This document shows positions 1,511-43,299 of a DNA stretch of 64,000 nt, one piece after another. Position numbers and translations under genes: made by a program. The notes under the pieces were generated by a model that ran no database searches, had not been told where the DNA came from, and worked only from the letters and a program-made list of their open reading frames with translations. Source of the DNA: an uncultured Rhodopila sp. (lineage in GTDB: Bacteria > Pseudomonadota > Alphaproteobacteria > Acetobacterales > Acetobacteraceae); the NCBI GenBank assembly GCA_903915725.1, contig CAIWTY010000068.1, forward strand, positions 5,211 through 69,210, given 5' to 3'. Each line of letters opens with the position of its first letter. Position 1 is the first letter of the stretch.

Positions 1511-2092
1511 ATGCAAGACTGCGACCCCAGGAATGTCGCCTGGTCCCGGCGTGCCGTGTTGGGGGCCGCGCTGGCCGCGGCACCTCTGCTGATGTCCGCG
1601 GCACGCGCGGACGACGCACCGGATCCCTCGGCCGAACCACCCCAACCTGGCGACCACTTCGTCTATTTGACCGGCCCCAAGATGGGCGAACCTGTCCGAA
1701 GCCAGGATCTGCCTCTTGGGGGGCCCCAGGTGCAGGTTTATCCCGCGGCGCCCGACGGCACGGTGCGGAATGGGTCTCGGCTTAACCTCGTGATTCTGGC
1801 ACGCATCGGAGACGACGGTGTTGACGATGAAACCCGCGCGCGGATGGCCGACGGCGTGGCGGCGTATTCCGGCGTCTGCACCCACCAGGCCTGCCCGGTG
1901 AACATGTGGTCGGCCGAGGCTCATGCCTTTGTTTGTTCTTGCCACGGATCGGTCTACGACCCGAAGGCTGGCGCCGAGGTGCTCGACGGTCCTGCACCGC
2001 GGCATCTCGCCGCGCTGCCGCTGAAATCGGTAGATGGCATCCTGACTGCCGCCGGCGGCTTTACCGGGCACGTCGGAATGCAAATGGGTTGA
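1511..2092 (+). CDS. Tat-exported Rieske [2Fe-2S] protein
   Basis: SRRAVLGAALAA twin-arginine-like leader; Rieske boxes CTHQAC and CSCHGSVY; GPAPRHL. Start 1511 chosen for the GAGGA RBS (ORF track opens at 1379). Confidence 0.85.
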   Translation: MQDCDPRNVAWSRRAVLGAALAAAPLLMSAARADDAPDPSAEPPQPGDHFVYLTGPKMGEPVRSQDLPLGGPQVQVYPAAPDGTVRNGSRLNLVILARIGDDGVDDETRARMADGVAAYSGVCTHQACPVNMWSAEAHAFVCSCHGSVYDPKAGAEVLDGPAPRHLAALPLKSVDGILTAAGGFTGHVGMQMG

Positions 2093-2191
2093 TGCTAATC
2101 GGCAACGGCCGAGGGACCCGCGCTGCCCGCCTGCATCATGATCACGTCGCGCGAATAAACTGACCTGGACGACATCAAGGGAGAAAAAACA

Positions 2192-3913
2192 ATGAAGAAG
2201 CTACTTGTTGGGTCAAGCTTGGCAGTCCTGATGATGGCGGGTACGATCCGCACAGCGAGCAGCGCGGATTACACCCCGGTGACCGATGCCCGTCTGGCCA
2301 ACCCGGAGCCGCAGAACTGGCTGATGACGCGCGGCAATTATCAAGGCTGGAGCTATAGTTCTCTCGACAAGATCAATACCGGCAACGTCAAGAAGCTGAC
2401 GCCGGTGTGGGCGGTGTCGACCGGGGTCGATTCGGGGCATGAGTCGCCGCCGATCGTCAATGACGGGGTGATGTTTGTTAGCACGCCGTATAGCCAGGTG
2501 ATGGCGCTGGATGCGGCGTCGGGTACGTTGCTCTGGCGCTACAAGCGCAGGCTGCCGGAAGGCTTCAGCGCGCTGCACAACACCAGCCGTGGCGTAGCTT
2601 TGTATGGCGACAAGGTTTTCTTCCCGGCGCTGGACGCGGTTCTGGTGGCGCTTGATGCCAAGACCGGAAAGGTCGCATGGCAAGCCAAGGTCGAAGACTG
2701 GAAGACCGGTTACTACATGACGATGGCGCCACTGGTGGTGAAGGGCAAGGTGCTTGTCGGCGTCGCGGGCGGCGAGTTCGGCGTGCGCGGCTTCGTCGAG
2801 GCGTTCGATGCCGACACCGGAAAGTCGGCGTGGAAGACCTATACCATTCCGGCTCCCGGCGAAGCCGGCAGCGAAACATGGCAAAAGCCCGATACCTGGA
2901 AGACCGGCGGCGCATCCACCTGGATGACCGGCAATTACGATTCAGCTACGAACACGGTGTATTGGGGCACCGGCAATGGCTCGCCGTGGTTTGGCGATCA
3001 GCGGCCCGGGGATAACCTGTATACATCTTCGACGGTCGCCCTGGATGGGGATACCGGCAAGATCAAGGGGCACTTCCAGTATCATCAGAATGAATCGTGG
3101 GACTGGGACGCGATGAACGCGCCGATGCTGGTTGATTTCCAACAGAATGGAGCGACCACGAAAGGCCTGCTGACACCGCAGCGCAACGGTTACCTGTATT
3201 GGCTTGGGCGCAACGGTGACGGCAGCATTTCCTACCTGAAGTCCGAAGCCTATGTCCCGCAGAATGTGTTCAAGGGCATCGACGAGGAAACCGGCCGCCC
3301 GGACGTTGACCCGGCGCACAAGCCGGGGACAGGCAAGTCCGCACAGTTCTGTCCCGGTTTGTGGGGCGGCAAGGACTGGCCCTACGAGGCGTATAATCCG
3401 AAAACCGGTATCGTTTACATTCCGTCGAACGAAAACCACTGCAATACACTTGAGGGCAAAGTGGAGCAGCGGGTTCCCGGCCAGTGGTGGACGGGCGTGG
3501 CGATTCCGGACCTGCATTTCTCGGTCGATACGAAGGCGGGTTTCTACGGCGAACTGCAAGCCTATGACGTCAACACCGGCAAGCGCGTCTGGCGGGATAC
3601 ATTCAAGGACTCGATGATGTGGGGTTCGGCGCTGACAACCGCGGGCGACCTGGTCTTCGCCGGCGGCACCAACGACCGAAAGTTCCGCGCCTATGATGCC
3701 AAATCAGGTGAGGAACTCTGGCAGTTCACCACAAACTCCGGCATCATTGCGCCACCGTCGACATTTGAGGTGAACGGCACGCAATACATCGCTGTCGCCT
3801 CCGGCTATGGTGTCGATCCGGCGTTCCAGGAGGGCTTGATGGCCAATTTGGTTGGCTGGAATGCGGACGTGCCGCAAGGCGGCGTGATCTGGGTGTTTGC
3901 GGTTTCGAAGTAA
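2192..3913 (+). CDS. PQQ-dependent dehydrogenase (methanol/ethanol family), no vicinal Cys-Cys
   Basis: Signal peptide; NWLMTRGNYQGWSYS; ESPPIV; GGEFGVRG; YWGTGN; GDNLYTSS; SWDWD; CPGLWGGKDW; W-docking repeats. Confidence 0.92.
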   Translation: MKKLLVGSSLAVLMMAGTIRTASSADYTPVTDARLANPEPQNWLMTRGNYQGWSYSSLDKINTGNVKKLTPVWAVSTGVDSGHESPPIVNDGVMFVSTPYSQVMALDAASGTLLWRYKRRLPEGFSALHNTSRGVALYGDKVFFPALDAVLVALDAKTGKVAWQAKVEDWKTGYYMTMAPLVVKGKVLVGVAGGEFGVRGFVEAFDADTGKSAWKTYTIPAPGEAGSETWQKPDTWKTGGASTWMTGNYDSATNTVYWGTGNGSPWFGDQRPGDNLYTSSTVALDGDTGKIKGHFQYHQNESWDWDAMNAPMLVDFQQNGATTKGLLTPQRNGYLYWLGRNGDGSISYLKSEAYVPQNVFKGIDEETGRPDVDPAHKPGTGKSAQFCPGLWGGKDWPYEAYNPKTGIVYIPSNENHCNTLEGKVEQRVPGQWWTGVAIPDLHFSVDTKAGFYGELQAYDVNTGKRVWRDTFKDSMMWGSALTTAGDLVFAGGTNDRKFRAYDAKSGEELWQFTTNSGIIAPPSTFEVNGTQYIAVASGYGVDPAFQEGLMANLVGWNADVPQGGVIWVFAVSK

Positions 3914-3979: not shown

Positions 3980-4417
3980 ATGCGCACCATCATTTTGCCC
4001 CGGCGCCGCGCCCTGGCGCTGGCTGCCGCCGGTTGGACGGCCTTGGCCGTTGACCGGACCATTGCTGCCGAGGAGTCGGCCGCCTATGTCGTCGATGTCA
4101 GCGATGTCACCGTTAAAGTCGGTGAGCCCGCGGTCATGCTTGCCACTGCCAGAGTCCGTGACGGATACCGGATACTCACGGCCTACAACAACCGCGTTAT
4201 CCGGCTGTCTTCGTACGACGATGGCGTCATCTTCGATAACGATATGGTCCCGGCCAAAGTCGATGACCGGGCCCTGGTGTTTCCGGTCGGGTTGCGCGCC
4301 GTCAAACCGGGGACGCATCCGATCAACGGGCTGCTGCGCGTCGGCTACATCCATGGCACTGATGAAATGGCCATGGTGTCGATGCGGCTGATCGCCAGCG
4401 TTACGGCAAAGGACTAA
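3980..4417 (+). CDS. Hypothetical exported protein (RRR leader, beta-rich)
   Basis: 145-aa ORF with PRRRALALAAAG leader and AxA site; no family recognised. Confidence 0.65.
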   Translation: MRTIILPRRRALALAAAGWTALAVDRTIAAEESAAYVVDVSDVTVKVGEPAVMLATARVRDGYRILTAYNNRVIRLSSYDDGVIFDNDMVPAKVDDRALVFPVGLRAVKPGTHPINGLLRVGYIHGTDEMAMVSMRLIASVTAKD

Positions 4418-4421
4418 CCTG

Positions 4422-5060
4422 CTACCCGGGCGCCTTCAGGATCGTCAGTTGGGTCGCGTCGGTGAAGTCACGCAAATCCTTCGCCGGGTCGCGAAACAGC
4501 TGACGGTCAAGCAGGAAGCGGCGCGATTCCGTCAGCTTTTCGCAATGTTCGTTGACGAACACCCCACCGACCGGCTGCTCGGTTGCTGTTGGCTCAGTCT
4601 TACGGCAGGTCCACCCATCGTCGCCGAACCTTGCTCGTACTTGCAGGGCAAACAGATAAGCCTTCTTGTGCAGATACAGCCGGGTGTGCGGATCGGTTTC
4701 GATCCGAAGTCCCGCAACCCCGGCCGAGTCGTCGATCAGCAAAGCCAGAGTAACGGGCTGACCGCCAACGATGGTCTGGCCGTCGTCACTGCCGGTATCG
4801 TAGCGGAAGCTGACGGCCCGCAGACCGTCAGATGCCGCCGGACACGCCTTGTAGTCTTGCCAGTCCTCGATTTTCCGCGACGAATCGTTGGCGCAGGCGA
4901 ACGCGCCGTATCCGCTCTGCGGCAAGGCTGACACCGGCATGCCAACCCGGAATTCACGCAAATCGTTCTGTGGCGCAGGGCCGGCGGCGGCGCATAGCGG
5001 CAGCAAGATGGCGGCGGCCAGTACGGGTCCGTGCGATTTCATGACCTTACTTCTCCGCAT
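4422..5060 (-). CDS. Hypothetical exported protein with paired cysteines
   Basis: Signal-like N-terminus, four Cys in the mature part, overlaps the end of the cytochrome c gene. Confidence 0.7.
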   Translation of the reverse strand: MRRSKVMKSHGPVLAAAILLPLCAAAGPAPQNDLREFRVGMPVSALPQSGYGAFACANDSSRKIEDWQDYKACPAASDGLRAVSFRYDTGSDDGQTIVGGQPVTLALLIDDSAGVAGLRIETDPHTRLYLHKKAYLFALQVRARFGDDGWTCRKTEPTATEQPVGGVFVNEHCEKLTESRRFLLDRQLFRDPAKDLRDFTDATQLTILKAPG

Positions 5061-5658
5061 CCTGATGGGGGGCGTTTGAATCAGTCGCCGCTTCGACTTT
5101 CATATGATGATGGGTCTCAGCCGTTTCCTGTTGTTCCGCTGAGGCGTGCTGGGTTCCCCCCTCGTCCTGCTTCGCATACATGTCGCAGACTCGGCTTCCT
5201 GCACCGAAGAAGGAATGACACTGATCGAGCGTCGCCTCGCCCTGCCCCTTGATGTTCGCAACCACATATTTTGCGACCGCGTCGATATCTGCCTGACGCA
5301 GCGGGTGATCGGCTTCGGGCGGTATCCGGCCGGGCTCGAGCTGCGACGCCTTCATTCCGTAGCAGCGACCATCCGTGTAAGCGTCGGGATCGAAATGCGG
5401 CATGCCTTTCGAAATGCGCCCGCAACGTATGGTCAACTCGATCTGCTCCAGCGTCAGCTTGGTCTTCCGCAGATTGGCTGCCGCGCCACCATAGCCGCCG
5501 CCGCCGGCGCCGGTCCATTTATGGCACCCCACGCAGTTCGCTGCCTTGAAGACCCGAAGCCCCTCGTCTGTGGAGTTGGCATCCGCCCGCGCAATGCCCG
5601 AGCCAGCCATCATCGCCGCGAAAACCGCAGCCGATACGTAACGGAAGCGTTTCATCAT
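5047..5658 (-). CDS. Monoheme c-type cytochrome
   Basis: Signal peptide; CVGCH heme motif; GMPHF distal Met; four extra Cys. Confidence 0.85.
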   Translation of the reverse strand: MMKRFRYVSAAVFAAMMAGSGIARADANSTDEGLRVFKAANCVGCHKWTGAGGGGYGGAAANLRKTKLTLEQIELTIRCGRISKGMPHFDPDAYTDGRCYGMKASQLEPGRIPPEADHPLRQADIDAVAKYVVANIKGQGEATLDQCHSFFGAGSRVCDMYAKQDEGGTQHASAEQQETAETHHHMKVEAATDSNAPHQDAEK

Positions 5659-5722: not shown

Positions 5723-7483
5723 TCAGTTCAGCGAAAAGACGTAGAGCGATGAACCCGGAGGCATTCCCTTGAGCTCCGGCGTCGACTCAATAAACCATTT
5801 GTCCCAGGCGCCGCCCTGGCCAACGAGAATCGCAACATATTGCTTGCCGTCGGACGTAAACGTCATCGGCGGCGCGTTGACCCCCCCGCCGGTATTGAAG
5901 CTCCAGAGCTCCTGAAGAGTCTTTGCGTCCAGAGCTGCAACTTTGCCGTCGGGTTGGCCGTAGAACACCAGATCCGGCGTGGTCAGCAGTCCGCCCAGCA
6001 TCGGAAAAGGTGTCTCGTGCTTGCCGACTTCCTTGCCTGTCGTTACGTCGATCGCGGTGACGCTGCCGGTAATCCGCACCGGCTGGTCCGGTCCGCCGCC
6101 GGTGAAGAATTCCCGCTTGCCGACAGGCTTGCCCGGCGTTTCCGGTTTAACCGTGATGCGGTTGCAACTTTCGATAACCGGAATATACCATTGCTTCAGC
6201 ACCGGATTATACGCCGTCGGTGGCCAGTTCTTGCCACCCATGTTGCCCGGGCAGATCATCGTCACCGGGTTTTCCTTACTCGGTGTGACGGACGCGTTGT
6301 ACTTCTGTACCGGCAACTTCGGATCGTACTCCACCGGCTTGCCGGTTTCCGGGTCGAGTCCTTTCGTCCACGTCACCTTCTTGACAAATGGCAGACCCCA
6401 AACGAACTGTCCATTGTCGCGATCAACCGCATAGGCAAACCCGTTGCGGTCCGCTTCCAAATCCAGGTGCCTCGGCTGGCCGTGCACCGGCGCGTCGGCC
6501 AGCACGTTTTCCGCCACGCTGTCATAATCGAACGCATCGTTTGGTGTATGCTGGAAGTGCCACTTGATCTTGCCGCTATCAACATCAAGCGCCAAAGTGC
6601 TGTCGGTATACAGATTATCGCCAGGCCGGTATTCCGAGTCCCAGTCTGGCCCCGGGTTGCCGACACCCCAGAACAGGGTATTCGTCCGGGGATCATAACT
6701 ACCGGTCACCCAGGTCGAGCCACCGCCGGTGGCCGCCGCATTGTTGCTGTCCTTCCAGGTCTCGCTGCCGGGCTCGCCCTTTGCCGGAATCGTGTATGTG
6801 CGCCAAACCTCCTTCTGCGACGTTAGATCGGTGGCGGCGATCCAGCCGCGGATGCCATACTCGGCGCCCGCTACCCCCGTAATGACCATATTCTTCACGA
6901 CCAGCGGTGCGCCGGTGATAACCTCGCTCTTATCCGGGTCCGCAACCTGTCTCTGCCACGCGATCTGGCCAGTGTCCTTGTTGGTGGCGATCAACCGTCC
7001 GTCCAGAGAGTGCGACAGCACCAGGTTGCCCGACAGCGCGACCCCTCGATTGTCTACGCCGCAGCAGGCCACAGCGCCGGCCCAGTCATGGTCCGTCTTC
7101 GGGTCCATGCGCCACAGCACCTTTGCCTGACCGCCCTTCGTATCGATCTTGTAAACCGATCCCCAGCCGTCCGTCACATACATAAAACCATTCTCGACGA
7201 GAGGCGTGCCTTCCAGGCCGCCATGCGACCAGATTCCCCCCCCTTCGATTCCACCGAGCTGAAGTGTCCAGGCGACATGCAGATTCTTGACGTTATCCTT
7301 ATTGATCTGGTTCAGCGGAGAAAAGCGCTGTGCTGCGTAATCTCTATGATGCGTCAGCCAGTTCCCCGCATCCGAATCCGCGTTCAGCAATTGCTCCGGT
7401 GTCACCCCATCGGCGGCGAAGACGGCCGGCGCGCTGCCGAGGATCAGCGCGACGGCCGCCGCCACGCATGTGTTTTTTACCAT
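5723..7483 (-). CDS. PQQ-dependent alcohol dehydrogenase with vicinal Cys-Cys
   Basis: NWLTHHRDYAAQRFSPLNQIN; EGTPLV; VACCGVDNRG; GAEYGIRG; PNDAFDYD; CPGNMGGKNW. Confidence 0.92.
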   Translation of the reverse strand: MVKNTCVAAAVALILGSAPAVFAADGVTPEQLLNADSDAGNWLTHHRDYAAQRFSPLNQINKDNVKNLHVAWTLQLGGIEGGGIWSHGGLEGTPLVENGFMYVTDGWGSVYKIDTKGGQAKVLWRMDPKTDHDWAGAVACCGVDNRGVALSGNLVLSHSLDGRLIATNKDTGQIAWQRQVADPDKSEVITGAPLVVKNMVITGVAGAEYGIRGWIAATDLTSQKEVWRTYTIPAKGEPGSETWKDSNNAAATGGGSTWVTGSYDPRTNTLFWGVGNPGPDWDSEYRPGDNLYTDSTLALDVDSGKIKWHFQHTPNDAFDYDSVAENVLADAPVHGQPRHLDLEADRNGFAYAVDRDNGQFVWGLPFVKKVTWTKGLDPETGKPVEYDPKLPVQKYNASVTPSKENPVTMICPGNMGGKNWPPTAYNPVLKQWYIPVIESCNRITVKPETPGKPVGKREFFTGGGPDQPVRITGSVTAIDVTTGKEVGKHETPFPMLGGLLTTPDLVFYGQPDGKVAALDAKTLQELWSFNTGGGVNAPPMTFTSDGKQYVAILVGQGGAWDKWFIESTPELKGMPPGSSLYVFSLN

Positions 7484-7766: not shown

Positions 7767-10052
7767 TCAAGCTGATTGCAATTGTTTGCCGATGGGCAAG
7801 CTGCGGATTCTCTTGCCGGTCGCCGCGAAAATCGCGTTGCACAGCGCGGGAGCGAATGGCGGCAGACCCGGTTCGCCCGCCCCGCTCGGCGGAACGTCCG
7901 GCCCGTTCGGCATGATATGAATGTTTGTAACCATCGGTCCTTCGTCGATCCTGGCAAGCTTGAAGTCGTCGAAGTTTTTCTGGACGACACGGCCGTTCTT
8001 GAAGGTGATCTCCCCGTATTTGGCCAGGCTGAGCCCCATGATCGCAGCGCCCTCGACCTGCGACTGGATACGCTCGGGATTGACGAAGGTGCCGCAATCG
8101 ATTGCGGTATCCACACGCGGGATGGTCAGCTTACCTTTGCCGTCCACGGCGACTTCCACAATCGTTGCGATGTAACTGACGAAGCTGCGATGTACGGCGA
8201 TGCCGAGCCCGTGGCCTTTCGGGACCTGGCGGCCCCACTGGCCCCGTTCGGCGACCAGTTCCACGACGCGGCGTAGACGTCCTGCATCGATCGGGTAGCT
8301 GCCGACGGGCTCGCCATAATCCCAAAAATCCTTGACCGTCGGCCCAATATCCACAATGCGGGCCGGGCCGATAAGTTCCAATAGCATCTCCTTCTGATCG
8401 CGTCCGGTGGCGTGGGCGATCTCCGCAACCATTGTTTGCACGGCGAAGGCGCGCGGAATGTTGGATACGGAACGGAACCAGCCGATCCGGGTATAAGCCG
8501 CCGCTTCGGGGTTTTCACAGCGGATGTTAGGGATATCGAACGGCAAATCGACCAGCCCCATTCCGAGTTCGAACGGAGCCTGGTGCTTGGCCCCGGCCGC
8601 AAACGTGGACATGATCGTCGGCGCGACGCTGCGATGCCGCCATGCAATGACCTTGCCGCTCTTGTCCAATCCGGCTTCGATCCGTTCGGCCGACACCGTG
8701 TGGACGAAGTCGTTATGGATGTCGTCCTCCCGCGTCCATTGCACCTTCACCGGCGCACCGACGGCCTTCGAAAGCAGCACGGCCTCCAGAACGAAATCGC
8801 ATTTCGACTTGCGGCCGAACCCGCCGCCCAGCAGCGTCACGTTGACGGTAACGTTCTCCGGCGAAATACCCAGAGTCTTAGCGATGTCATCGCGTGTCCC
8901 CTGCGGGCTTTGAACGGGCGCCCAGACCTCTGCCTTGCCATCGGCGACCTGTGCGGTGGCGACAGGGGTTTCCATGCTAGCGTGGGCCAGATGTGGAAGG
9001 TAGTACTCGCCGACGATGACCTTGGCGGCGGATTTCATTGCCGAGTCCACGTCGCCGTTGTTGCGAACCACCTCTCCGGGCTTGCGCGATGCGTCTTCGA
9101 GTTCCTTGCGATAGGCGACGGAATCGTAGCTGGCGTTCGGCCCGTCGTCCCAGACGATCTTCAGGGCATCGCGGCCCTTGATCGCCGCGCCGGTGTTACG
9201 GGCGATGACGGCGACGCCGCCAAGCGGCTGGAATTTCGATGGCCAGGGCCAGCCTTGTACCTGGATCACCTGCTCCACCCCGGATACCTTCAGCGCGTCG
9301 GACGGATCGAATGAAACCACTTTGCCGCCGGTCACCGGCGGGCGGGCGATCACAGCGTATTTCATTCCCGGCAGCCGCGTATCTATTCCATACATTGCCC
9401 TGCCGGTAGTGATGTCGTGCAGATCGACAATGCCGATCTGGCCTTTGCCCATATAGCGGAAGTCTTTCGGGTCCTTCAGGCGCAAAGTTGCGACGTCGGG
9501 AACCGGCTGCGCTGCGGCGTCATCAGCCAAGTCTCCGTAACCGAGCTTCTGACCGCTACCGACATGGATGACTTCGTGATGCGCCGCCTTGACTTCGCTG
9601 ACTGGAACGTTCCAGCGCTTTGCAGCAGCGGCTTCCAGCATCGTGCGGGCGGAAGCGCCAATCTGTCGCATGGGGATAAGGAAGTGACGGGTGCTGCGGG
9701 ATCCGTCGGTGTCCTGGTTGCCGTACTTGACTTCATCACCCGGAGCCTGCTGGACCTTAACCATCTCCCAGTTCGCTTCCATTTCATCGGCAACGATCAT
9801 CGGCAGGCTGGTGCGCACGCCGGTGCCCATTTCAGACCGCGCCGCAATGATCGTAACCACGCCGTCAGGGGCGATGGAAACAAAAACCTTTGGATCGTTG
9901 ACTGTGCCGTGCGGCATCTTGTCTGCGCCGGTGGAATAGGCAGCCATGCCGCGGCGCGACATCACGGGCACGGCAAGCACCAGACCGGCGGTCACACCCA
10001 GGCCGCGCAATACGCCGCGCCTGGAGACATTCTCGATGCGATTGTCGAACAT
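7767..10052 (-). CDS. iorB: Molybdopterin-binding subunit, isoquinoline 1-oxidoreductase beta / aldehyde oxidoreductase family
   Basis: SRRGVLRGL Tat-like leader; SEMGTGVRTS; TDGSRS; GGGFGRK; GWFRSVSN; GAGEPGLPPFAPALCNAIFAATGKRIRSLP. Confidence 0.88.
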   Translation of the reverse strand: MFDNRIENVSRRGVLRGLGVTAGLVLAVPVMSRRGMAAYSTGADKMPHGTVNDPKVFVSIAPDGVVTIIAARSEMGTGVRTSLPMIVADEMEANWEMVKVQQAPGDEVKYGNQDTDGSRSTRHFLIPMRQIGASARTMLEAAAAKRWNVPVSEVKAAHHEVIHVGSGQKLGYGDLADDAAAQPVPDVATLRLKDPKDFRYMGKGQIGIVDLHDITTGRAMYGIDTRLPGMKYAVIARPPVTGGKVVSFDPSDALKVSGVEQVIQVQGWPWPSKFQPLGGVAVIARNTGAAIKGRDALKIVWDDGPNASYDSVAYRKELEDASRKPGEVVRNNGDVDSAMKSAAKVIVGEYYLPHLAHASMETPVATAQVADGKAEVWAPVQSPQGTRDDIAKTLGISPENVTVNVTLLGGGFGRKSKCDFVLEAVLLSKAVGAPVKVQWTREDDIHNDFVHTVSAERIEAGLDKSGKVIAWRHRSVAPTIMSTFAAGAKHQAPFELGMGLVDLPFDIPNIRCENPEAAAYTRIGWFRSVSNIPRAFAVQTMVAEIAHATGRDQKEMLLELIGPARIVDIGPTVKDFWDYGEPVGSYPIDAGRLRRVVELVAERGQWGRQVPKGHGLGIAVHRSFVSYIATIVEVAVDGKGKLTIPRVDTAIDCGTFVNPERIQSQVEGAAIMGLSLAKYGEITFKNGRVVQKNFDDFKLARIDEGPMVTNIHIMPNGPDVPPSGAGEPGLPPFAPALCNAIFAATGKRIRSLPIGKQLQSA

Positions 10053-10055
10053 AGC

Positions 10056-10508
10056 TCAGGCCCCCGTCGTTGCGAGATGCACAGCCGTCTCGATCCGTTG
10101 GTAGCAGCCGCACCGGCAGATGTTGCCTGCCATGGCCTCGCGGATTTCCTCGTGCGACGGATGCGGATTGCGCGCGATGAGAGACGAAGCCTGCATGATC
10201 TGCCCGGATTGACAGTACCCACATTGCGGCACGTTGACCTCCCGCCATGCCTTCTGGACGGGATGATTGCCGGCCGGGTCGAGGCCCTCGATCGTGGTGA
10301 TCCGCTTCCCAGCCGCTTCCGCGAGGGTGGTACTGCATGATCGAACCGCTATCCCTTCAAGGTGTACTGTGCAGGATCCACAAAAGCCATGTCCGCAGCC
10401 GAATTTGGTTCCGGTCAGGCCCATCTCGTCACGGATAAACCAAAGCAGCGGCAGAGACGGATCGCCATCCCAGTGCTGTTCACGTCCATTAACTACCAGC
10501 GTTATCAT
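10056..10508 (-). CDS. iorA: (2Fe-2S)x2 subunit, IorA family
   Basis: [35 protein letters not shown]. Confidence 0.9.
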
Positions 10509-31030: not shown

Positions 31031-33111
31031 CGATGTGCACAGCACCACGGTCCGGCATGTTCCAAATCCGGCGATTTGTTGCCTTGCCTTTGATACTGCT
31101 GGTGGTTCCGTTCGGTGCACCCGGCGCCCACGCTCAATCAGTCAACTACGGCGTCATGGAGCAGATGTTCGGTGAGCCGGTCACCACGTCGGTCACCGGC
31201 AAACCGCAGCGTGCCGCCGACGCGCCGGCCAACATCGAGATCATCACGCAGGACGACATAAGGCGCTCCGGCGCCACCACCATTCCGGAGGTGCTGCAGT
31301 TCGTCACCGGTGTCGATGTCCGGTTTAACGGCCTGGGAGGAGCTGATGTGGGCATTCGCGGCTACAACCAGACAGCGAACCCGCATCTGATGGTGCTGGT
31401 CGATGGCCGGCAGGTCTACATGGTGGACTATGGCCGCGTGGTCTGGGAAGCGATCCCCGTCCAGTTGGCGGAGATCCGTCAGATCGAGGTTATCTATGGA
31501 CCGAACTCCGCACTGTACGGATTCAACGCCGCGGGCGGCGTGATCAACATCATCACCTACGATCCGCGCAAGGATCCGATCAATACGGCGACAGTGGCAG
31601 GCGGCACCCAGCAATACCGGGCGGGTTCGGCCGTGGCCACGGGCCGTATCGGCGAGGAGTCCGGTCTGCGGCTGTCGCTCGGCGGCTTCGCGGCGCATGA
31701 TTTTGCTCCCGGGGCGTTGAGCCTCGCCGACAGGTTGAGCCGGCAAACCCCGTTCACCGGGACGTTCAACGCCGATGGACGAACGAAGATAACGGATGAT
31801 GTGGAGGCGTTCGCAGGTGTCAGTGTCGGCGACACCCGCTTGTCGGGGCCGTCGCCCGCCGGCGCCTACCTGACGGAAGAGCAGCACTCCAACTCATTCC
31901 GGCTCGGCGTCAACGCCACCACGCCGATCGGCCTGCTCAGTCTGTCAGGATATCGCAACCAGGCCAACGTGAACATTGCCAACGTCATCACAGACGATTT
32001 CGGCGATCTGTTCGCCGCGCAAGAGTTCGAGACCCAGACGGTCAGCGTGGTGCAGGCCAGCGATCTGGTGAAGCTCGGGCCGGACCACACCGTCCGCGCC
32101 GGACTTGAATACCGCTTCAACAGCGACGGCTCGGCCCTGCTGGCCGGGAGCATGTCCAACACCATCTACTCGGCCAGCCTGATGTGGGACTGGCAGGTGA
32201 CCCCGGTGGTTTCGCTGACCAATGCGGTGCGGCTGGATCACGTGCAGATGCAGTATAGCGGGTTCCTGGTGCCGGGCAGCGGCATCACCGCTGCCGACTA
32301 CAGCAACACGACCTTCAACCAGCCGAGCTTCAATTCAGGTCTGGTCTGGAAAGCCACCGATCTCGACACGCTGCGCCTGACCGCGGCGCGCGGCGTGCAA
32401 CTGCCGACGCTGATGGACCAGGCGCTCCAGGTCGCCCCCGGAGAGCTGGCGCCCGTCGGCCTGCTCGGCCGTCCCAATGTGCTTCCGTCGGTGATTTACA
32501 ACGCTGAGTTGGATTACGATCGCACATTGACCGAAATCGCATCCACGCTTCGCACGGCGGTGTTCGGGCAGCGCACCGACAACGTCATTTCCTGGCCGTT
32601 CGGGGGGCAGTTCGGCATCACCCAAGCCGGCATCCCCGCCTTCTTCTCCGCCAATGTCGGCTATACCACCGCCGCAGGGATCGAAATCGGCTTGAAGGGC
32701 CATTCGGAGTCGGGCTGGCGATGGAATGTCAGCTACGCGTTCACCGCTACCACCGACAACACGTCGCTGAACCAGGGCGGGGTGCTGACCAGCACGGTGA
32801 ACTATGCGTGCAGCGCGCCGCGCAACGTCGTCGATGCCGGCATCGGATACAGCAGGGAAAAATGGGAGCTGGACCTGATCGGGCGGTGGCAATCGAATTT
32901 CTGCGACTTCCGCGCCACCGGCTCGAATCTGGGGCTGGAGCGCGTCTCGATCGACAACTACGCCACGCTCAACGCGCGCATCGGTTACGCCGTGATCGAG
33001 CATGTGACCCTGGCGCTCGCGGCACAGCAGCTCAATCAAGCAACGATAGTACGGACCGCGGGACCGCCTTATGAGCGCAGGATTATTGCCAGCGTAACCG
33101 TCCATTTCTGA
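31027..33111 (+). CDS. TonB-dependent receptor
   Basis: Plug APANIEIITQDDIRRSGATTIPEVL, LVLVDGRQVY, IEVIYGPNSALYGFNAAGGVINIIT; C-terminal ...VTVHF. Confidence 0.92.
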   Translation: MTMCTAPRSGMFQIRRFVALPLILLVVPFGAPGAHAQSVNYGVMEQMFGEPVTTSVTGKPQRAADAPANIEIITQDDIRRSGATTIPEVLQFVTGVDVRFNGLGGADVGIRGYNQTANPHLMVLVDGRQVYMVDYGRVVWEAIPVQLAEIRQIEVIYGPNSALYGFNAAGGVINIITYDPRKDPINTATVAGGTQQYRAGSAVATGRIGEESGLRLSLGGFAAHDFAPGALSLADRLSRQTPFTGTFNADGRTKITDDVEAFAGVSVGDTRLSGPSPAGAYLTEEQHSNSFRLGVNATTPIGLLSLSGYRNQANVNIANVITDDFGDLFAAQEFETQTVSVVQASDLVKLGPDHTVRAGLEYRFNSDGSALLAGSMSNTIYSASLMWDWQVTPVVSLTNAVRLDHVQMQYSGFLVPGSGITAADYSNTTFNQPSFNSGLVWKATDLDTLRLTAARGVQLPTLMDQALQVAPGELAPVGLLGRPNVLPSVIYNAELDYDRTLTEIASTLRTAVFGQRTDNVISWPFGGQFGITQAGIPAFFSANVGYTTAAGIEIGLKGHSESGWRWNVSYAFTATTDNTSLNQGGVLTSTVNYACSAPRNVVDAGIGYSREKWELDLIGRWQSNFCDFRATGSNLGLERVSIDNYATLNARIGYAVIEHVTLALAAQQLNQATIVRTAGPPYERRIIASVTVHF

Positions 33112-33205
33112 ACACAACGGGATCCGTCAGGCAAACCGAATGCTGCGAGGCCGCTCCAATACCCGGCTATCTCAGACGGACCGCCCGAAGCCGCTGCTCT
33201 AACAC

Positions 33206-34393
33206 CTAATCCGCGGCGTCGTCCGCGACGTTGCCGCGCAGACGCTCTTGCAGCGCCGCGGCGGCCAGCGGCGGCGCGAACAGGTAGCCTTGTCCGACCA
33301 GGCAGCCCAGCCGTTCCACCTCGATGGCCACGGGTTCGGTCTCGATGCCCTCGGCGACCAGTGTCAGGCCCAGATCTCGGGCCACCGAGACGATCCCGCG
33401 GATGATCTTTGGCGCCTCCGGATCGACCAGGCAGTCGCGCACGAAGGACTGGTCGATCTTCAACTCGCTGAAGGGCAGCCGCATCAGGGACAACAGGGAC
33501 GAGTGGCCGGTGCCGAAATCGTCGATCGACAGCTTGACGTCGCGGATGCGCAGGCGCGTCAGAATGTCCGCCGCGGCCACGCAGTCGGTCATCACCGCGC
33601 CTTCGGTGACCTCCAGCACGAGCGCCGCGGCGGGCACGTCCGCCTTTGCCAATGCGTCAGACACCTTCTCAGGCAGTGACAGGTCGGTCAGGCTGAGCGG
33701 GGACAGGTTGACCGCGAGCGTCATGTCCCGGCTGACCAGGCGCCAGGCGCGGAAGGTGGCGAGCGCCTCGTCGAGAATGTACCAGGTCAGCCGATCGATC
33801 AGGCCCGACCGTTCGGCCACAGGGATGAACAGGCTCGGCGGCACGCTGCCGAGCGTCGGGCTTTGCCAGCGGGCCAGCGCCTCGACCCCGATCAGCTGCC
33901 GTTCAAGCAGCGTTACTTTCGGCTGAAATGCGCAGGTCAGTTCACCGTGCCCGAGTGCGGCCGCGAGCACGTCCGGTTCGATCGCCCTGATCTGCTCCGG
34001 ATGGTCCGGGCCGGCCGCTTGCGGCACGCGGCGCAACAGCGCGATCAAATCATCGACCCGCATCGGCTTGCCGAGCGTGCCCGCGACCCGCAACCCGAGC
34101 GACATCGCCAGACGCGCCGCGGCCTGGCGAACGCGTTCATCGAAGGCCGAAATGAAGATCAGAACCGGATCGGATTTTGAGTCGCAGAGGCGGCGCAACA
34201 ACTCGATCCCGTCATTCTTGCGCAGACCGAGATCGAGCACCACGACATCGTAGGCAACCGCGCCGACGCGGGCGACCGCGGCTTCCAGAGTAGCCGCGCT
34301 GTCGGCGGCGAAGCCCGCGCGCGCGGCGGCGCTGGCGACCACCAGGCGTTGAACGGCCTCGTCATCCACGACCAGGAGGCGTCGTTCAGTCAT
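33206..34393 (-). CDS. REC-EAL c-di-GMP phosphodiesterase
   Basis: LLVVDDE and VVLDL REC motifs; FQPK, EALARW, AVNLS, IDDFGTG, LKID, AEGIE, QGYLF all intact. Confidence 0.92.
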   Translation of the reverse strand: MTERRLLVVDDEAVQRLVVASAAARAGFAADSAATLEAAVARVGAVAYDVVVLDLGLRKNDGIELLRRLCDSKSDPVLIFISAFDERVRQAAARLAMSLGLRVAGTLGKPMRVDDLIALLRRVPQAAGPDHPEQIRAIEPDVLAAALGHGELTCAFQPKVTLLERQLIGVEALARWQSPTLGSVPPSLFIPVAERSGLIDRLTWYILDEALATFRAWRLVSRDMTLAVNLSPLSLTDLSLPEKVSDALAKADVPAAALVLEVTEGAVMTDCVAAADILTRLRIRDVKLSIDDFGTGHSSLLSLMRLPFSELKIDQSFVRDCLVDPEAPKIIRGIVSVARDLGLTLVAEGIETEPVAIEVERLGCLVGQGYLFAPPLAAAALQERLRGNVADDAAD

Positions 34394-34465
34394 GCCGGTT
34401 CAGCCGCCTCCTCATACCGGCCAAAATCAGCCTCCACACATTTGCATCCACAAACCCGGGTGTGG

Positions 34466-34668
34466 ATGGCGGGCCACCGCCCCATAGGCATTAAAATACC
34501 GCCCGTCGCGCGCCGCTTCCCCTCGTCATGCCGACGAAGGTCGGCATCCACGGCTTTGCCTAAACCCGCACCGCAAGGCGTGGATGGTGCGCCTCCGCGC
34601 ACCATGACGGGGAACAAGCGCAGCCGCCGCGGCACTATTTTAACGCATATCGGGCCACCGCCCGCCAT
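34466..34668. mobile_element. About 203-bp MITE-like element, copy A, with about 33-bp imperfect TIRs and a REP-type core (34524-34609)
   Basis: Ends ATGGCGGGC...TTAAAATA / TATTTTAA...GCCCGCCAT; near-identical inverted copy at 51917-52117. Confidence 0.7.
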
Positions 34669-35033
34669 GAAGGCTGATATGTCCGTGCGGATGGGGCCGG
34701 CAGCCGCGCGGCACGCTCTTGGCCAATTCCCCGAAGGGCACAGGCGCCGGGATATGTGCTGTACAGAGCGACAGTGTCTTCCCCGGGTACCCCGGCCTGC
34801 ATGGCAGAGTTTTGGCCGGTCCGCCGCTTCGCCCGAAGGTCGTTCGCCGGGTGACGGATTCACCGGCCATAAACTGTCGCCGCCTGGCAATGACGGGGCG
34901 GCAGCCGGACAATGGGACCGGCTCCGGGCATCCGGTAGCGCTGATAGAAACATCTGGCTGCTGGCCATGTATGTCACCCATTGCGGGAAGCCTGTTGGAC
35001 CGTCGTCTTTGCAACTCCAGTAATGCATATAGA

Positions 35034-35048
35034 TTAACGCAGAGTTAA
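35034..35048. promoter_or_regulatory. TTAA-N7-TTAA motif (CtrA-type site)
   Basis: TTAACGCAGAGTTAA in an AT-rich intergenic patch upstream of the REC-EAL gene. Confidence 0.45.
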
Positions 35049-35299
35049 GATTGCGGCCTCAGCCGCACAATTAGAATTCATTTTTGATTCAGTAACGTGA
35101 CGGGCTTGGAGAACCCGGTTTACGACCTGTCCAGCGCCACGCCGAATGGCGGCAGCTCCAAAGACTGCTTGCCGTCTGCCTCCGTCAGTTGTGCGAGCAG
35201 GGTCTGAACCAACAGCGGCGGCCCCGGGGTCGGTGGAATGCGCTGCCCGACCGGGCGTCGCAGCCGGGACGGTTTGGCCGCTGGCCGACCGCGGCCGCT

Positions 35300-35935
35300 T
35301 CAGCGCGCCGCCGCTATCGCCGCGTTCAACGCTTTCACGCCCGCGGCCGGGCCGTCCGGGTGGTTCCAGACGCAGCCAACGACGGCGAGAAAATCGGTCC
35401 CGGCGCTGACCAGGGGGGCGCAGTTCTCCGGCGTGATGCCGCCGATGGCGCAGCTCGGCAGTTCCATCATCTCGGACCACCATTGCAGGATCTCGGGGTC
35501 CAGCAACGCCGCGACCTGCTTGGTCGAAGAGGGATAGAAGGCGCCGAACGCAACGTAGTCGGCGCCGTCCTCGCCCGCCTGCATTGCCAGGTCGCGGCTG
35601 CCGTGACAGGTCACGCCGAGGGTCAGGTCCGGCCCCAGCAGCCGCCTCGCGTCCCGCGCCGGCATGTCGTCCTGACCGACATGGGCGCCGTCGCAGCCGT
35701 TTGCGCGGACCAAATCGGCGCGGTCGTTCAGCAGGAACGCGACGTCGCGGGACTGGCAGACCGGACGCAGCGTGTCGATCGCACGGCGCCAGGCATCGTC
35801 GTCCGCGTCCTTCAGCCGGAGCTGCACCGCCGCCACGTCACCGGCGTCCAGCGCCGCCGCCAGAAGACCGGCGAACGGCACGGGGTCGAGCGCAGGCGGC
35901 GTGATCAGGTAAATGCGGCAGGCATCCGCCGGCAT
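35300..35935 (-). CDS. thiE: Thiamine-phosphate synthase
   Basis: [60 protein letters not shown]. Confidence 0.9.
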
Positions 35936-36129
35936 CGGCGTCAGGCCTTGCCGCGGAGGCCGCGGAACGGGGTCTCGCGCACGGGATGGTGTCCTTTTCT
36001 GAAGACGGTCCCGGTCACTAGCCCGGGCGGGCACGCCTGTCACCTTTCGGCGAACCGGTCGCCCGGCGGCTGCCATGTCCGCGCCAGGCCGTTACAACGG
36101 ACAGCGGAAACCCGAACGGACCCGCAACA

Positions 36130-36516
36130 ATGAAACTTCTCCCGATTACTGTCTCTGCTGTTTTAGCCCTTGCGGCTTGCGCCGCCGATACGATGAAGGG
36201 CTATGTCGGCCAGGATATCCGGGCGGTTGAACTGGCCTATGGGCCGCCGGCGAATCAGATCGACCTCGGCGGCGGCGTGCGAGCGTTCCAGTGGCAGAAG
36301 ATCTCTGTCGATACCACACCCGTTTCGGCGGTCACCACGACCGACAAGGACAAGAAGGGGCGCAAGACCACCGAAACCGAGTTCATCGGCGGCGACCAGA
36401 CTGTGACGAAATGCCTCTACACATTCCTGACCGCCCGCGACCCGGCGACCAACGGATGGATCGTCACGGGTTTTCGTCAACCGTCGTTGGACTGCGCCGT
36501 TGGCGGTTTGAGCTGA
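36130..36516 (+). CDS. Hypothetical lipoprotein
   Basis: Lipobox LAAC at residues 14-17; ELAYGPP..I; C-terminal Cys pair. Confidence 0.7.
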   Translation: MKLLPITVSAVLALAACAADTMKGYVGQDIRAVELAYGPPANQIDLGGGVRAFQWQKISVDTTPVSAVTTTDKDKKGRKTTETEFIGGDQTVTKCLYTFLTARDPATNGWIVTGFRQPSLDCAVGGLS

Positions 36517-36602
36517 GGTCGGTTACGCTGCGGAACCGGCCGGACCTTCCTGCCGGCGGGGAGCCTGGCGAGCGCCGAACGGCCGGGGAACAGTGCGCTT
36601 CC

Positions 36603-36920
36603 CTACCCGGCACGCCGCGGCGAAGGATTGACCTCGTTGATGAAGTTGGGATCCACCAGCAGACGCCAATAATATGCTGTGCAGACAGCGCCCGGCGGTA
36701 TCGAAGGATATCTCTGCTGGACGACCGCCGAAACAACCGAATCTCCCAGCAGCTTGGCGAGGCCCAGGGCGAACGGCGCGCCCGGGCCTTTGTCGTGTTG
36801 CGATTCTATCCGCACCGCCTGCGTTGCAAGCGCGCCGCACGGGCCACCGGCTCCTTCTATCATCAGCGGAACGAACCAGATGGCGATGACGATGACGACA
36901 ACGGCGAGCAAGGTCTTCAT
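36603..36920 (-). CDS. Hypothetical membrane-anchored protein
   Basis: AGGA RBS; hydrophobic MKTLLAVVVIVIAIWFVPLM; two Cys. Confidence 0.6.
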   Translation of the reverse strand: MKTLLAVVVIVIAIWFVPLMIEGAGGPCGALATQAVRIESQHDKGPGAPFALGLAKLLGDSVVSAVVQQRYPSIPPGAVCTAYYWRLLVDPNFINEVNPSPRRAG

Positions 36921-37237
36921 AATTCCTACGTTAACCAAACGGACGGGATACGCAACCGTGTTTGCTGCGAACCGTCACCCGGGATCGCGGCGACTTGCCC
37001 GCTCGCACCAGAGGTCTGTCCCGGGAAATTTCCTATCATCGCCCGTCAGATTCCACGTTCGGTTATTGTGAAATAACGTCGCCTCAACCCGCGTTACGAC
37101 CCCGGCGTTGCCAATCCGTCACGTCAAAACCAATTGCAATAGCCTGCTTCTGTCGTCCGCCGGCCACCCCCTGACGGTCTCGCTTTCGCTGTGCTAGGAC
37201 GTCGGAGCGAAAAATACCGCACAGTAGGAGTGGAATA

Positions 37238-38260: not shown

Positions 38261-39081
38261 CTCTGCCCTCCCGCCGATCGGCTTTGCCCGGATTCTCGTT
38301 GACGCTGGGCATTACGGTGGTCTGGCTGTCGCTGATCGTCTTGCTGCCGCTGACCTTGCTGGCGCTGCGGCCGTGGACGCTCGGCTTCGCGGGCGTCTGG
38401 CAGTCGGTCACCGAGCCGCGGGTGCTCGCCGCGCTGCGGCTGAGTTTCGGCACCGCGGCGCTGGCCGCGGCGGTGAACATGCCGCTCGGGCTGCTGGTGG
38501 CGTGGGTGATGGTCCGCTACCGCTTCCCGCTGCGCAACCTGGCGGATTCGCTGATCGACATGCCGCTGGCCTTGCCCACCGCGGTCGCCGGCATCGCCCT
38601 GACCGCCCTGTTCGCGCCGCGCGGCTGGATCGGTGCCCTGCTGCTGCCGCTCGGCATCCGGGTCGCCTACACGCCGCTGGGCATCTTCGTCGCCCTGGTG
38701 TTTGTCGGCTTGCCGTTCATGGTGCGGACGCTGGAGCCGGTGATCATGGAGATGCCGCGAGAAGCCGAGGAAGCCGCCGCGACCCTGGGCGCCACGCGGC
38801 GGCAGACCCTTTTGCGGGTGGTGCTGCCGGCGCTGACCCCTGCCCTGCTGGCCGGCTTCGGCGCGGCGTTCGGACGCGGCATCGGCGAGTACGGCTCCGT
38901 CATTTTCATCGCCGGCAACATGCCGATGGTGAGCGAGATCGCGCCGTTGCTGATCCTGATCCGTCTGGAGCAGCTTAATTACGCCGGCGCCGCCGCGCTG
39001 GCGCTGGTGATGCTGCTGGCGTCGTTCGCCGTGCTGCTGTCGCTGAACCTGCTGCGCGCCCGCATGCGGAGGCGATCATGA
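38257..39081 (+). CDS. cysT: Sulfate ABC transporter permease
   Basis: LPGFSLTLG, DMPLALPTAVAGIAL, GEYGSVIFIAGNMP. Confidence 0.93.
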   Translation: MTLPSRRSALPGFSLTLGITVVWLSLIVLLPLTLLALRPWTLGFAGVWQSVTEPRVLAALRLSFGTAALAAAVNMPLGLLVAWVMVRYRFPLRNLADSLIDMPLALPTAVAGIALTALFAPRGWIGALLLPLGIRVAYTPLGIFVALVFVGLPFMVRTLEPVIMEMPREAEEAAATLGATRRQTLLRVVLPALTPALLAGFGAAFGRGIGEYGSVIFIAGNMPMVSEIAPLLILIRLEQLNYAGAAALALVMLLASFAVLLSLNLLRARMRRRS

Positions 39082-43170: not shown

Positions 43171-43299
43171 CGCCGCGGATCGACTGACGGAGGCATTTCG
43201 AGTGCCATAGGGTGAGGATTAGGCCGGCGGAGCAAGCTATACTCTCAATTCGTACCACCAGGCCTGTCCGGGCGATACGAAATCCGTTGGTATCCGCCC

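Follow-up and report, generated by a model that had tools for sequence, protein, structure and literature searches.

To our knowledge, all characterised soluble PQQ alcohol and methanol dehydrogenases use a c-type cytochrome, whether a separate protein or a fused domain, as their electron acceptor. A vicinal disulfide is regarded as a hallmark of this family, and the role of this Cys-Cys ring is debated between electron transfer and protection of the semiquinone. The exported high-potential Rieske proteins of which we are aware serve in electron transfer only (bc1, b6f, arsenite oxidase), and arsenite oxidase, AioAB, is the only well-known case that we can name in which an exported Rieske protein is active outside a bc/b6f complex. 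In this periplasmic oxidoreductase, electrons exit via a high-potential Rieske protein with a Tat signal to a soluble cytochrome c or to azurin.

The window, by which we mean the whole stretch of 64,000 nucleotides analysed here, contains two PQQ dehydrogenase genes with different redox neighbours. A gene for an exported Rieske [2Fe-2S] protein of 193 aa (1511–2092, + strand; Tat signal 1511–1606, mature domain 1607–2089) is followed, after a spacer of 99 bp (2093–2191, + strand), by the gene for DH1, a PQQ dehydrogenase of the methanol/ethanol family with a Sec signal and a predicted periplasmic location (2192–3913, + strand; 573 aa). The spacing agrees with an earlier note on this DNA, which had placed a Tat-type Rieske gene about 100 bp ahead of DH1. 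A ribosome-binding site, AAGGGAG, could be read before the DH1 start. No terminator-like site was found in the spacer, and a scan of spacer and leader for promoters, terminators and Rfam families gave no signal above chance. Co-transcription of the two genes is inferred, as no transcript data are available.

On the opposite strand, DH2 (5723–7483, − strand; TIGR03075, 543 bits) carries the Cys-Cys pair within ACCGVDNRG as well as the motif F-D-Y-D, and 65 bp downstream of it lies the gene for a monohaem c-type cytochrome (5047–5658, − strand; CVGCH; PF13442 and PF00034). Upstream of DH2 stands a periplasmic pair of the Mo aldehyde-oxidoreductase type (7767–10508, − strand; MoCoBD_1, MoCoBD_2 and Fer2_2), made up of a MoCo subunit with a Tat signal (7767–10052, − strand) and a 2Fe-2S subunit (10056–10508, − strand). 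The earlier note had claimed that cytochrome b and c1 are absent nearby, and that the CC-positive enzyme adjoins a cytochrome c gene and the CC-less one a Rieske gene. Both claims hold, the former for the entire 64-kb window, in which neither a cytochrome b nor a cytochrome c1 gene was found.

DH1 scored 579.5 bits against TIGR03075 (cut-off 480) and 266 bits against PF01011, and the closest structure in the PDB is PedH (6zcv; E 6.5e-110). DH1 and DH2 share 37% identity and fall into separate clades in alignment and tree. All PQQ and metal ligands are kept in DH1. E195, N262, D304, R331, W244 and R133 match PedH and are invariant among 16 clade members, and D306 is likewise invariant in the clade alignment. 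Together with D304 it forms the lanthanide-type D-x-D within W-D-W-D, metal use being a prediction from sequence only; W-D-W-A replaces this motif in some gammaproteobacterial clade members and in one Methylobacterium aquaticum copy. The genome also contains pqqC. Its sequence marks DH1 as an alcohol-type PQQ dehydrogenase exported by Sec to the periplasm, with an intact active site that is predicted to be of the lanthanide type here.

What DH1 lacks is the Cys-Cys ring. The relevant stretch in DH1 is PEGFSALHNTSRGVA, and its counterpart in DH2 is AVACCGVDNRGVA; the loss of the vicinal cysteines that had been proposed is confirmed, with ALHNTSRG in DH1 against ACCGVDNRG in DH2. In the alignment to 6zcv the residues LH sit under the CC of PedH (RPCCDVINRG), and MAFFT shifts the register by one, so that L128 comes under the second Cys and H129 under the residue that follows. 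The loop at this site is shorter in DH1, and His129 is invariant across the clade.

DH1 thus resembles PedH-PedF, ExaF and XoxF-XoxG (6zcv/6zcw) in its TIGR03075 membership, in its PQQ and metal ligands including the extra Asp, in being a periplasmic, Sec-exported protein, and in having the gene of a small periplasmic redox protein next to its own. It differs from them in the absence of Cys-Cys, the shorter loop and the invariant His, with an identity of only about 40%. Where these systems employ XoxG, PedF or ExaB, the neighbour of DH1 is a Tat-exported Rieske [2Fe-2S] protein, and there is no adjacent dedicated c-type cytochrome.

The Rieske protein starts with a Tat signal (SRRAVLG), followed by ARA|DD and an acidic stretch. 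Its cluster motifs are CTHQAC (box I) and CSCHGSVY (box II), and the disulfide cysteines are kept. Ser and Tyr of box II, which had been put forward as markers of a high potential, are both present. Among 97 family members CxHxxC and CxCH are kept without exception, an RR signal with an AxA-like cleavage site occurs in 93, the Ser of box II is nearly invariant and the Tyr is replaced by Phe in about half. The protein matches PF00355 with E 8e-8, and the AioB model TIGR02694 gave 41.8 bits, which does not meet its cut-off of 95.65. The translation accordingly displays a Tat signal, a cleavage-type site and cluster motifs of the high-potential type, the potential itself being predicted, and the protein is probably Tat-exported, cleaved and soluble.

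The pairing of Rieske protein and dehydrogenase is conserved far outside the window. Within the genus, the Rieske gene adjoins a DH1-type gene in all 13 cases, from two subclades. In 400 sampled alphaproteobacterial genomes, Rieske homologs occurred in eight, the same eight that have a DH1-clade gene, and the dehydrogenase was adjacent to the Rieske gene in each of them; in these 400 genomes DH1-clade genes scored at least 693 bits and the next best PQQ-ADH 409. The pair was present in 74 of the best 80 of at least 589 species-level loci, in about ten phyla that include Pseudomonadota (alpha, beta, gamma), Acidobacteriota, Rokuibacteriota, Methylomirabilota, Binatota, Tectimicrobiota and Myxococcota. 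It was also seen in all 15 informative metagenome loci and on a Deinococcus plasmid. The pair persists down to identities of 48–55% for the dehydrogenase and about 35% for the Rieske protein. It also persists where the gene order has changed to dehydrogenase-orf145-Rieske (Bradyrhizobium-type loci) and after local duplications, in which each dehydrogenase copy retains its own Rieske gene. Orphans without a Rieske gene amounted to six of the 80 loci plus a second copy in one genome. Rieske-neighbour counts were taken from tblastn, as a regex combined with a greedy gene caller undercounts them (over-long dehydrogenase ORFs swallow Rieske genes). The search for Rieske homologs listed only relatives of at least 60% identity, so that distant relatives beside other enzymes would be invisible to it.

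Distances in the Rieske and dehydrogenase families co-vary (r = 0.78, Mantel p about 0.001, 107 pairs), and charge complementarity between the partners gave no signal (r = 0.07). Natural Rieske-dehydrogenase fusions were absent from 150 cluster representatives and from the long hits. The pairing is beyond chance, and on these comparisons the Rieske gene and DH1 are to be regarded as a conserved two-gene module of predicted redox function.

The earlier note had called for a tree of PQQ dehydrogenases on which Cys-Cys presence is scored against Rieske and cytochrome c neighbours. In this tree the CC-less enzymes linked to a Rieske gene make up a single clade (local support 100%), with CC-positive groups as its sisters; loss of Cys-Cys coincides with Rieske adjacency on a single branch. 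Cys-Cys was present in all 45 non-clade relatives examined. None of these CC-positive enzymes had a Rieske neighbour, and 26 of the 45 had a cytochrome c gene within 1.5 kb or a fused haem; within the clade, a cytochrome c gene lay within 1.5 kb at only about 6 of 86 loci. Because the link goes back to a single evolutionary event, it is not a replicated correlation. Nor does Cys-Cys loss alone exclude haem partners, since fused haem c domains occur in several other PQQ dehydrogenases without Cys-Cys and one clade member, P0121, has a cytochrome c domain fused at its N-terminus. A metagenome scan for relatives of P0121 did not recover the fused form. The proposal of a Rieske protein, in place of cytochrome c, as the electron acceptor of the CC-less clade passes all the genomic tests that the earlier note had put forward and is supported at this level, without biochemistry or transcript data.

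Contact between the partners was modelled with AlphaFold2, using a read-through chain of Rieske protein, spacer and DH1 (768 residues, 26 paired rows). The chain reached a pTM of 0.83. By arithmetic, the dehydrogenase domain alone could give about 0.70 at most, and therefore the two domains appear to be placed confidently against each other. As this rests on pTM only, with no negative control and with neither PAE nor coordinates, the model provides hints that the Rieske protein may dock on DH1.

The reading that we prefer, at a probability of roughly 0.6, is that the Rieske protein is a dedicated electron acceptor or subunit of DH1 and replaces cytochrome c; biochemical, genetic or transcript data are lacking. 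DH1 would oxidise an alcohol, not yet identified, and the product would probably be an aldehyde, because Mo or NAD aldehyde dehydrogenases often adjoin the module. The electrons of PQQH2 would leave singly to the [2Fe-2S] cluster of a Rieske protein that docks on DH1 or stays bound to it and that would do the job performed by cytochrome cL, c550 or XoxG in the Cys-Cys-bearing relatives. From what is established for Rieske proteins of the bc1 type, its potential is expected to be above that of PQQ. The reduced protein might then be re-oxidised by a soluble c-type cytochrome, a cupredoxin or a terminal oxidase, as in arsenite oxidase. On the enzyme side, loss of the Cys-Cys ring, the shorter loop and the invariant His next to PQQ would represent adaptation to the Rieske partner.

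Such an arrangement would differ from AioAB, where the Rieske protein is partnered by a Mo-bisPGD/[3Fe-4S] subunit that has no signal of its own and depends on co-export, whereas DH1 is a PQQ propeller exported by Sec. Should the Rieske protein prove to be a bound subunit, the nearest likeness would be to the quinohaemoprotein alcohol dehydrogenases (type II; 1kv9, 1yiq), in which a PQQ propeller also has a permanent one-electron acceptor. Those enzymes have a fused haem c and retain Cys-Cys, whereas here the Rieske protein is a separate polypeptide and Cys-Cys is absent.

A more specific version, which we consider doubtful, is that the Rieske protein oxidises enzyme-bound PQQH2 in the way a quinol is oxidised at the Qo site of bc1, the two soluble proteins together making up a ‘Qo site’. 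The loss of Cys-Cys and the shorter loop would open the active-site funnel, and an exposed cluster-ligand His at the tip of the Rieske protein could approach PQQ closely enough for a hydrogen bond or for tunnelling over a short distance. His129 would perhaps act as a relay, and proton-coupled electron transfer would follow. If true, quinoprotein iron-sulfur dehydrogenases would be a new enzyme class with a wide distribution among soil bacteria.

Among the alternatives to a Rieske electron acceptor, the one that survives best, although we hold it to be rather improbable, is that the Rieske protein is an accessory factor and not an electron outlet, be it as a keeper of the PQQ/semiquinone redox state, as an activator or as an electron feed for a reductive reaction. 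The role of the Cys-Cys ring is itself debated, and a tight, apparently docked pairing would also suit a permanent accessory subunit. Most modules, however, encode no other acceptor nearby (the cytochrome c count being about 6 of 86), whereas the CC-positive relatives do; the catalytic residues for alcohol oxidation are all kept, and we know of no exported high-potential Rieske protein with a role other than electron transfer. As an accessory factor, the Rieske protein might take over a role that has been proposed for the Cys-Cys ring.

It is also conceivable, but in our view very unlikely, that the Rieske protein serves the neighbouring periplasmic Mo aldehyde oxidoreductase and that the PQQ dehydrogenase uses another acceptor. 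The Mo aldehyde-oxidoreductase family adjoins the Rieske-dehydrogenase pair in about 30–32 of 88 loci, and in many other genomes the Mo genes sit inside the Rieske-DH1 operon, often in the order Rieske-dehydrogenase-orf145-2Fe2S-MoCo. The Mo enzyme found there has no cytochrome subunit, unlike AldFGH-type enzymes, which have a cytochrome c subunit. Against this, more than 90% of the loci have the Rieske gene, and about a third have the Mo enzyme. The Rieske gene always adjoins the dehydrogenase and not the Mo genes, its profile at the genome level equals that of the dehydrogenase, and the Mo genes of the window belong to another operon, one that contains a cytochrome c. That DH1-type and Mo enzymes share one acceptor remains possible.

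Still less credence can be given to co-inheritance of two independent periplasmic proteins on a mobile cassette without direct contact. The module does occur on plasmids and megaplasmids and has a patchy distribution over the phyla, a pattern that points to horizontal transfer of the whole unit, and co-varying distances are to be expected of any co-transferred pair. A mere cassette is nevertheless difficult to reconcile with a pair that survives deep divergence, changes of gene order and local duplications while no other neighbour is conserved, with the observation that this Rieske type never occurs without the dehydrogenase in the 400 genomes, and with the confident joint placement of both domains by AlphaFold.

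The last possibility, a spare or alternative iron-sulfur subunit of a bc complex encoded elsewhere, is barely tenable: the best family matches are indeed bc-type Rieske proteins (QcrA-like, 83 bits; Thermus thermophilus 1NYK, E 2e-35 over the whole soluble domain), but all bc-type NCBIfam scores are far below cut-off, the genome's own PetA shares only 37% identity over 59 residues, behind the Tat signal there is an AxA site with an acidic stretch and no retained anchor, and the window has no cytochrome b or c1 gene. This reading, which the earlier note had listed as a possible refutation, was rejected, as the genome holds two complete petABC operons, each encoding a PetA of its own, and a further two PetA-like genes, and the Rieske protein is thus not a stray part of bc1. 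With QcrA-type Rieske proteins (1NYK, 3FOU) it aligns over the whole soluble domain, N-terminal subdomain and disulfide cysteines included, at an identity of about 35%. It differs in lacking a cytochrome b or c partner, in its predicted cleavable signal in place of a membrane anchor and, in box II, in a Ser (CSCHGS) where Thermus has Gly.

PQQ-ADH type 6a, reportedly defined by Keltjens et al. in 2014, is probably the group into which the DH1 clade falls, although locus tags could not be matched and no comparison with the Keltjens reference sequences was made. Both type 6a genes of Methylobacterium aquaticum 22A (Adh4, Adh6) lie on megaplasmid pMaq22A_1p, and the type has been called uncharacterised (PMC7356819). 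We found exactly two DH1-clade genes on pMaq22A_1p, both CC-less, with 55–59% identity and each with its own Rieske gene upstream. Growth of this strain on methanol or ethanol is not supported by the two clade enzymes (PMC7356819; locus tags unmatched), and Cys-Cys loss has been noted in ‘some minor members’ of the type 6a group (PMC8561711). The consulted papers that use the term type 6a contained no mention of a Rieske protein, and a full-text literature search yielded no description of a PQQ dehydrogenase-Rieske pairing; Keltjens et al. (2014) itself lay outside both searches.

If a Rieske electron acceptor is confirmed, quinoprotein biochemistry would gain a new electron outlet that applies clade-wide, the clade having exchanged the disulfide for a His-bearing loop and the cytochrome for a Tat-exported high-potential Rieske protein. 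After arsenite oxidase, exported Rieske proteins would thereby have only a second well-supported role outside bc/b6f complexes. It could also explain why type 6a is uncharacterised, as such enzymes may escape assays and genetic work built on a cytochrome partner and on methanol or ethanol as the substrate. Lanthanide biology would be touched as well, because the lanthanide motif is found in most clade members, and so would bioelectrocatalysis, because haem would give way to an iron-sulfur mediator. At the level of species, at least 589 genomes harbour the clade; they belong to bacteria from soil and water, among them Bradyrhizobium, Methylobacterium, Paracoccus, Azoarcus, Hyphomicrobium, Acidobacteriota, Rokuibacteriota and Deinococcus.

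Two further exported proteins are encoded between DH1 and the cytochrome c gene. No Pfam or NCBIfam match was obtained for either. The first, orf145 (3980–4417, + strand), has no redox motif and is an Ig-like beta-sandwich protein according to its AlphaFold model, which is all-beta with a pLDDT of about 97 over the mature part; Foldseek returned only generic Ig-like folds with a TM of at most 0.5. At 40 of 88 loci a member of its family follows the dehydrogenase gene, and orf145 constitutes the third module gene in the subclade that includes the window. The second, orf212 (4422–5060, − strand), without assigned function, is the last gene of the neighbouring convergent operon; among close relatives it accompanies the cytochrome c and DH2. 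NAD aldehyde dehydrogenases, like the Mo enzymes, are frequent neighbours of the module.

The ORF map and the family scans resolved two convergent gene groups in the window. Proteins of 95% identity bear names that point to a Rhodopila-like member of the Acetobacteraceae as the source. The forward-strand group comprises a Rieske protein of 193 aa (1511–2092), the PQQ dehydrogenase DH1 (2192–3913; 573 aa) and orf145, an exported protein of 145 aa (3980–4417). On the reverse strand lie a 2Fe-2S subunit (10056–10508), a molybdopterin subunit with a Tat signal (7767–10052), the second PQQ dehydrogenase DH2 (5723–7483), a monohaem cytochrome c (5047–5658) and orf212, an exported protein of 212 aa (4422–5060). 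The earlier note had placed the Rieske gene about 100 bp from DH1 and had contrasted this neighbourhood with that of DH2 near a cytochrome c gene; both statements agree with the map, the spacer between 2092 and 2192 (forward strand) measuring 99 bp. A ribosome-binding site lies within this spacer, which has no hairpin resembling a terminator. The start of orf212 overlaps the cytochrome c gene by 14 bases, suggesting translational coupling of the two; orf212 has no family match, yet it accompanies the DH2–cytochrome c unit in relatives.

Both dehydrogenases scored above the curated threshold (480 bits) of the profile for methanol/ethanol-type PQQ dehydrogenases, DH1 with 579 and DH2 with 543 bits. 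Alignment with PedH, a lanthanide-dependent PQQ alcohol dehydrogenase used as reference, confirmed that DH1 lacks the vicinal Cys-Cys (CC) which DH2 possesses: DH1 reads PEGFSALHNTSRGVA, DH2 AVACCGVDNRGVA and PedH RPCCDVINRG, with His129 placed one residue differently against the second Cys by different aligners. The remaining active-site residues of DH1 are kept (E195, N262, D304, R331, W244 and R133), the extra Asp of the lanthanide type is present (D306) and PqqC is encoded in the same genome. Within the clade, i.e. the CC-less, Rieske-linked PQQ-ADHs related to DH1, a subset shows W-D-W-A in place of the lanthanide-type W-D-W-D (L075, L076, L079, L088, L091, L105, L172). These loci belong to Rhodanobacter, Pseudoxanthomonas, other gammaproteobacteria and one Methylobacterium copy (L172, copy 1 of M. 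aquaticum). The motif suggests that the clade may include calcium-type members, and linkage to a Rieske gene thus does not depend on the lanthanide motif.

Judged from gene neighbourhoods, the pairing of Rieske and dehydrogenase genes is conserved far past chance. Within the genus, the Rieske gene adjoins a DH1-type gene on the same strand in 13 of 13 cases, the dehydrogenases forming two subclades with 84–95% and 55–57% identity to DH1; six other PQQ-ADHs of the genus (~40% identity) are CC-positive and without a Rieske gene. In 400 evenly sampled alphaproteobacterial genomes, a Rieske homolog occurred in eight. Genes of the DH1 clade, which score well clear of all other PQQ-ADHs (693 vs 409 bits), were present in exactly these eight, and every one of the eight Rieske genes adjoins the dehydrogenase. 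Scanning one-genome-per-species contigs returned at least 589 relatives. Among the best 80 of these, 74 have the pair and are distributed over alpha-, beta- and gammaproteobacteria, Acidobacteriota, Rokuibacteriota, Methylomirabilota, Binatota, Tectimicrobiota and Myxococcota; the six exceptions are apparent orphans, one of which adjoins a transposase-like ORF. The pair is also present in all informative metagenome contigs (15/15) and on a Deinococcus plasmid, where RefSeq labels the neighbour only as ‘Rieske 2Fe-2S domain-containing protein’. It is kept where the order is dehydrogenase–orf145–Rieske, as in Bradyrhizobium-type and some gammaproteobacterial loci, and in tandem or back-to-back duplications every dehydrogenase copy retains its own Rieske gene. 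Several genomes (L032, L033, L108 and, at 143487–145802 and 449314–451841, the M. aquaticum 22A megaplasmid pMaq22A_1p) carry two modules, one per subclade. The two modules may be arranged in tandem, back-to-back or at a distance from each other, each dehydrogenase with its cognate Rieske type, CSCHGS or CPCHQSEY.

Outside the clade, 45 of 45 PQQ-ADHs are CC-positive; an adjacent Rieske gene was sought beside them and found in none (0/45), whereas in 26 of them a cytochrome c gene is no more than 1.5 kb away or a haem domain is fused to the enzyme. FastTree, run on 137 sequences, placed the CC-less enzymes with a Rieske link on a single branch with 100% local support; the closest outgroups are CC-positive. 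The CC state requires two changes on this tree and Rieske adjacency five, namely one gain and scattered orphan losses. The correlation of CC loss with Rieske adjacency, the check proposed in the earlier note, is perfect but rests on a single origin; the real evidence is that the linkage has outlasted deep divergence. Distances among the dehydrogenases track those among the Rieske proteins (r = 0.78, Mantel p about 0.001, 107 pairs); this shows that the two are inherited together without swapping partners, and alone it does not show contact.

Because the Rieske and DH1 genes share a reading frame, 1607–3910 was translated through, with three stop codons taken as Gly, and submitted to AlphaFold2 with 26 naturally paired rows from other loci, likewise read through. 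The pLDDT was about 90–96 in the Rieske domain, about 80–95 in the propeller and below 50 in the 60-residue linker, at a pTM of 0.83. By our own arithmetic, the 548-residue propeller alone would account for at most about 0.70 in the 768-residue chain, and a Rieske domain at an inter-domain error of ~5 Å would give about 0.83. The model suggests a confidently docked arrangement, but as a hint only, given the artificial linker, the monomer network, the reliance on pTM alone and the lack of a negative control. Charge complementarity between the two proteins was looked for and none was seen.

The proposal that the CC-less clade passes electrons to a Rieske protein instead of cytochrome c is therefore supported by comparative genomics and lacks bench proof. 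Most likely, with a probability of about 0.6, these dehydrogenases have the Rieske protein as their dedicated electron acceptor or as a redox subunit, which, if true, would represent a new variation on the PQQ dehydrogenase system. CC loss alone does not bar haem partners, because several other CC-less PQQ dehydrogenases have fused cytochrome c domains, as does a clade member, the cluster representative P0121, at its N-terminus. P0121 (1075 aa; LHPTNRG, WDWD) combines an N-terminal beta-propeller-like region with the cytochrome c domain (CARCH), the fused parts being connected through very acidic linkers.

The clade is probably identical with, or part of, ‘PQQ-ADH type 6a’. This type has been termed uncharacterised; two of its genes, adh4 and adh6, are borne by the M. 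aquaticum 22A megaplasmid, and growth of this strain on methanol or ethanol depends on other enzymes (PMC7356819). We found exactly two clade members on this megaplasmid, both CC-less and each with a Rieske gene upstream. The absence of CC from some members of the group has been remarked on in passing (PMC8561711). A literature search, which did not cover the founding type 6a classification, revealed no Rieske link for the clade or any PQQ dehydrogenase.

Besides the pair itself, no universal neighbour was seen across 88 loci. The Ig-like, exported orf145 lies downstream of the dehydrogenase in 40 of them; it is a beta-sandwich with the conserved stretch KPGxHPINGxxRVGY, without a redox motif in its sequence or an informative fold match. 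A periplasmic pair of the molybdenum aldehyde-oxidoreductase type adjoins the module in about 30–32 of the 88 loci, and 11 have an NAD aldehyde dehydrogenase there; a route from alcohol via aldehyde to acid would be compatible with these neighbours. Because the Mo enzymes at these loci have no cytochrome subunit, the Rieske protein may, on a rival reading, serve both the dehydrogenase and the Mo aldehyde oxidoreductase. Mo genes are found inside the Rieske–DH1 operon, with no cytochrome gene, at L022, L027, L034, L037, L042, L063, L064 and other loci; those of the window (7767–10508, reverse strand) lie upstream of CC-positive DH2 and its cytochrome c.

As to the proposed acceptor itself, the Rieske protein carries a twin-arginine signal (SRRAVLG, ending ARA/DD) and the boxes CTHQAC and CSCHGSVY, with two disulfide cysteines. 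The Ser and Tyr of box II are linked with high potential in bc1 Rieske proteins; both are present, as had been claimed, and the Tyr is replaced by Phe in about half of the family. In 93 of 97 family members the RR signal precedes an AxA-like site and then a run of polar and acidic residues, from which we infer a cleaved, soluble, periplasmic protein. Its nearest solved structure is the Thermus Rieske protein, the likeness extending over the whole soluble domain. A bc1 subunit, also one of a complex encoded elsewhere, can be ruled out, as scores with bc-type profiles and that of AioB (the arsenite oxidase Rieske subunit) are all far under cut-off, identity to PetA, the bc1 Rieske subunit, is 37% across 59 residues only, a search of the window gave no cytochrome b or c1 gene, in keeping with the earlier note, and two complete petABC operons in the same genome (contigs 29 and 69, besides two further PetA-like genes) already hold their own PetA. 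The second full bc1 operon is on contig 69, outside the window: the region 31398–38440 begins with a cytochrome c gene, petA, petB and petC and continues with a response regulator, a CC-positive PQQ-ADH (35539–37287) and a CxxCH protein of 383 aa. The two further PetA-like Rieske genes are orphans on contigs 47 (78819–79613) and 30 (42560–43528).
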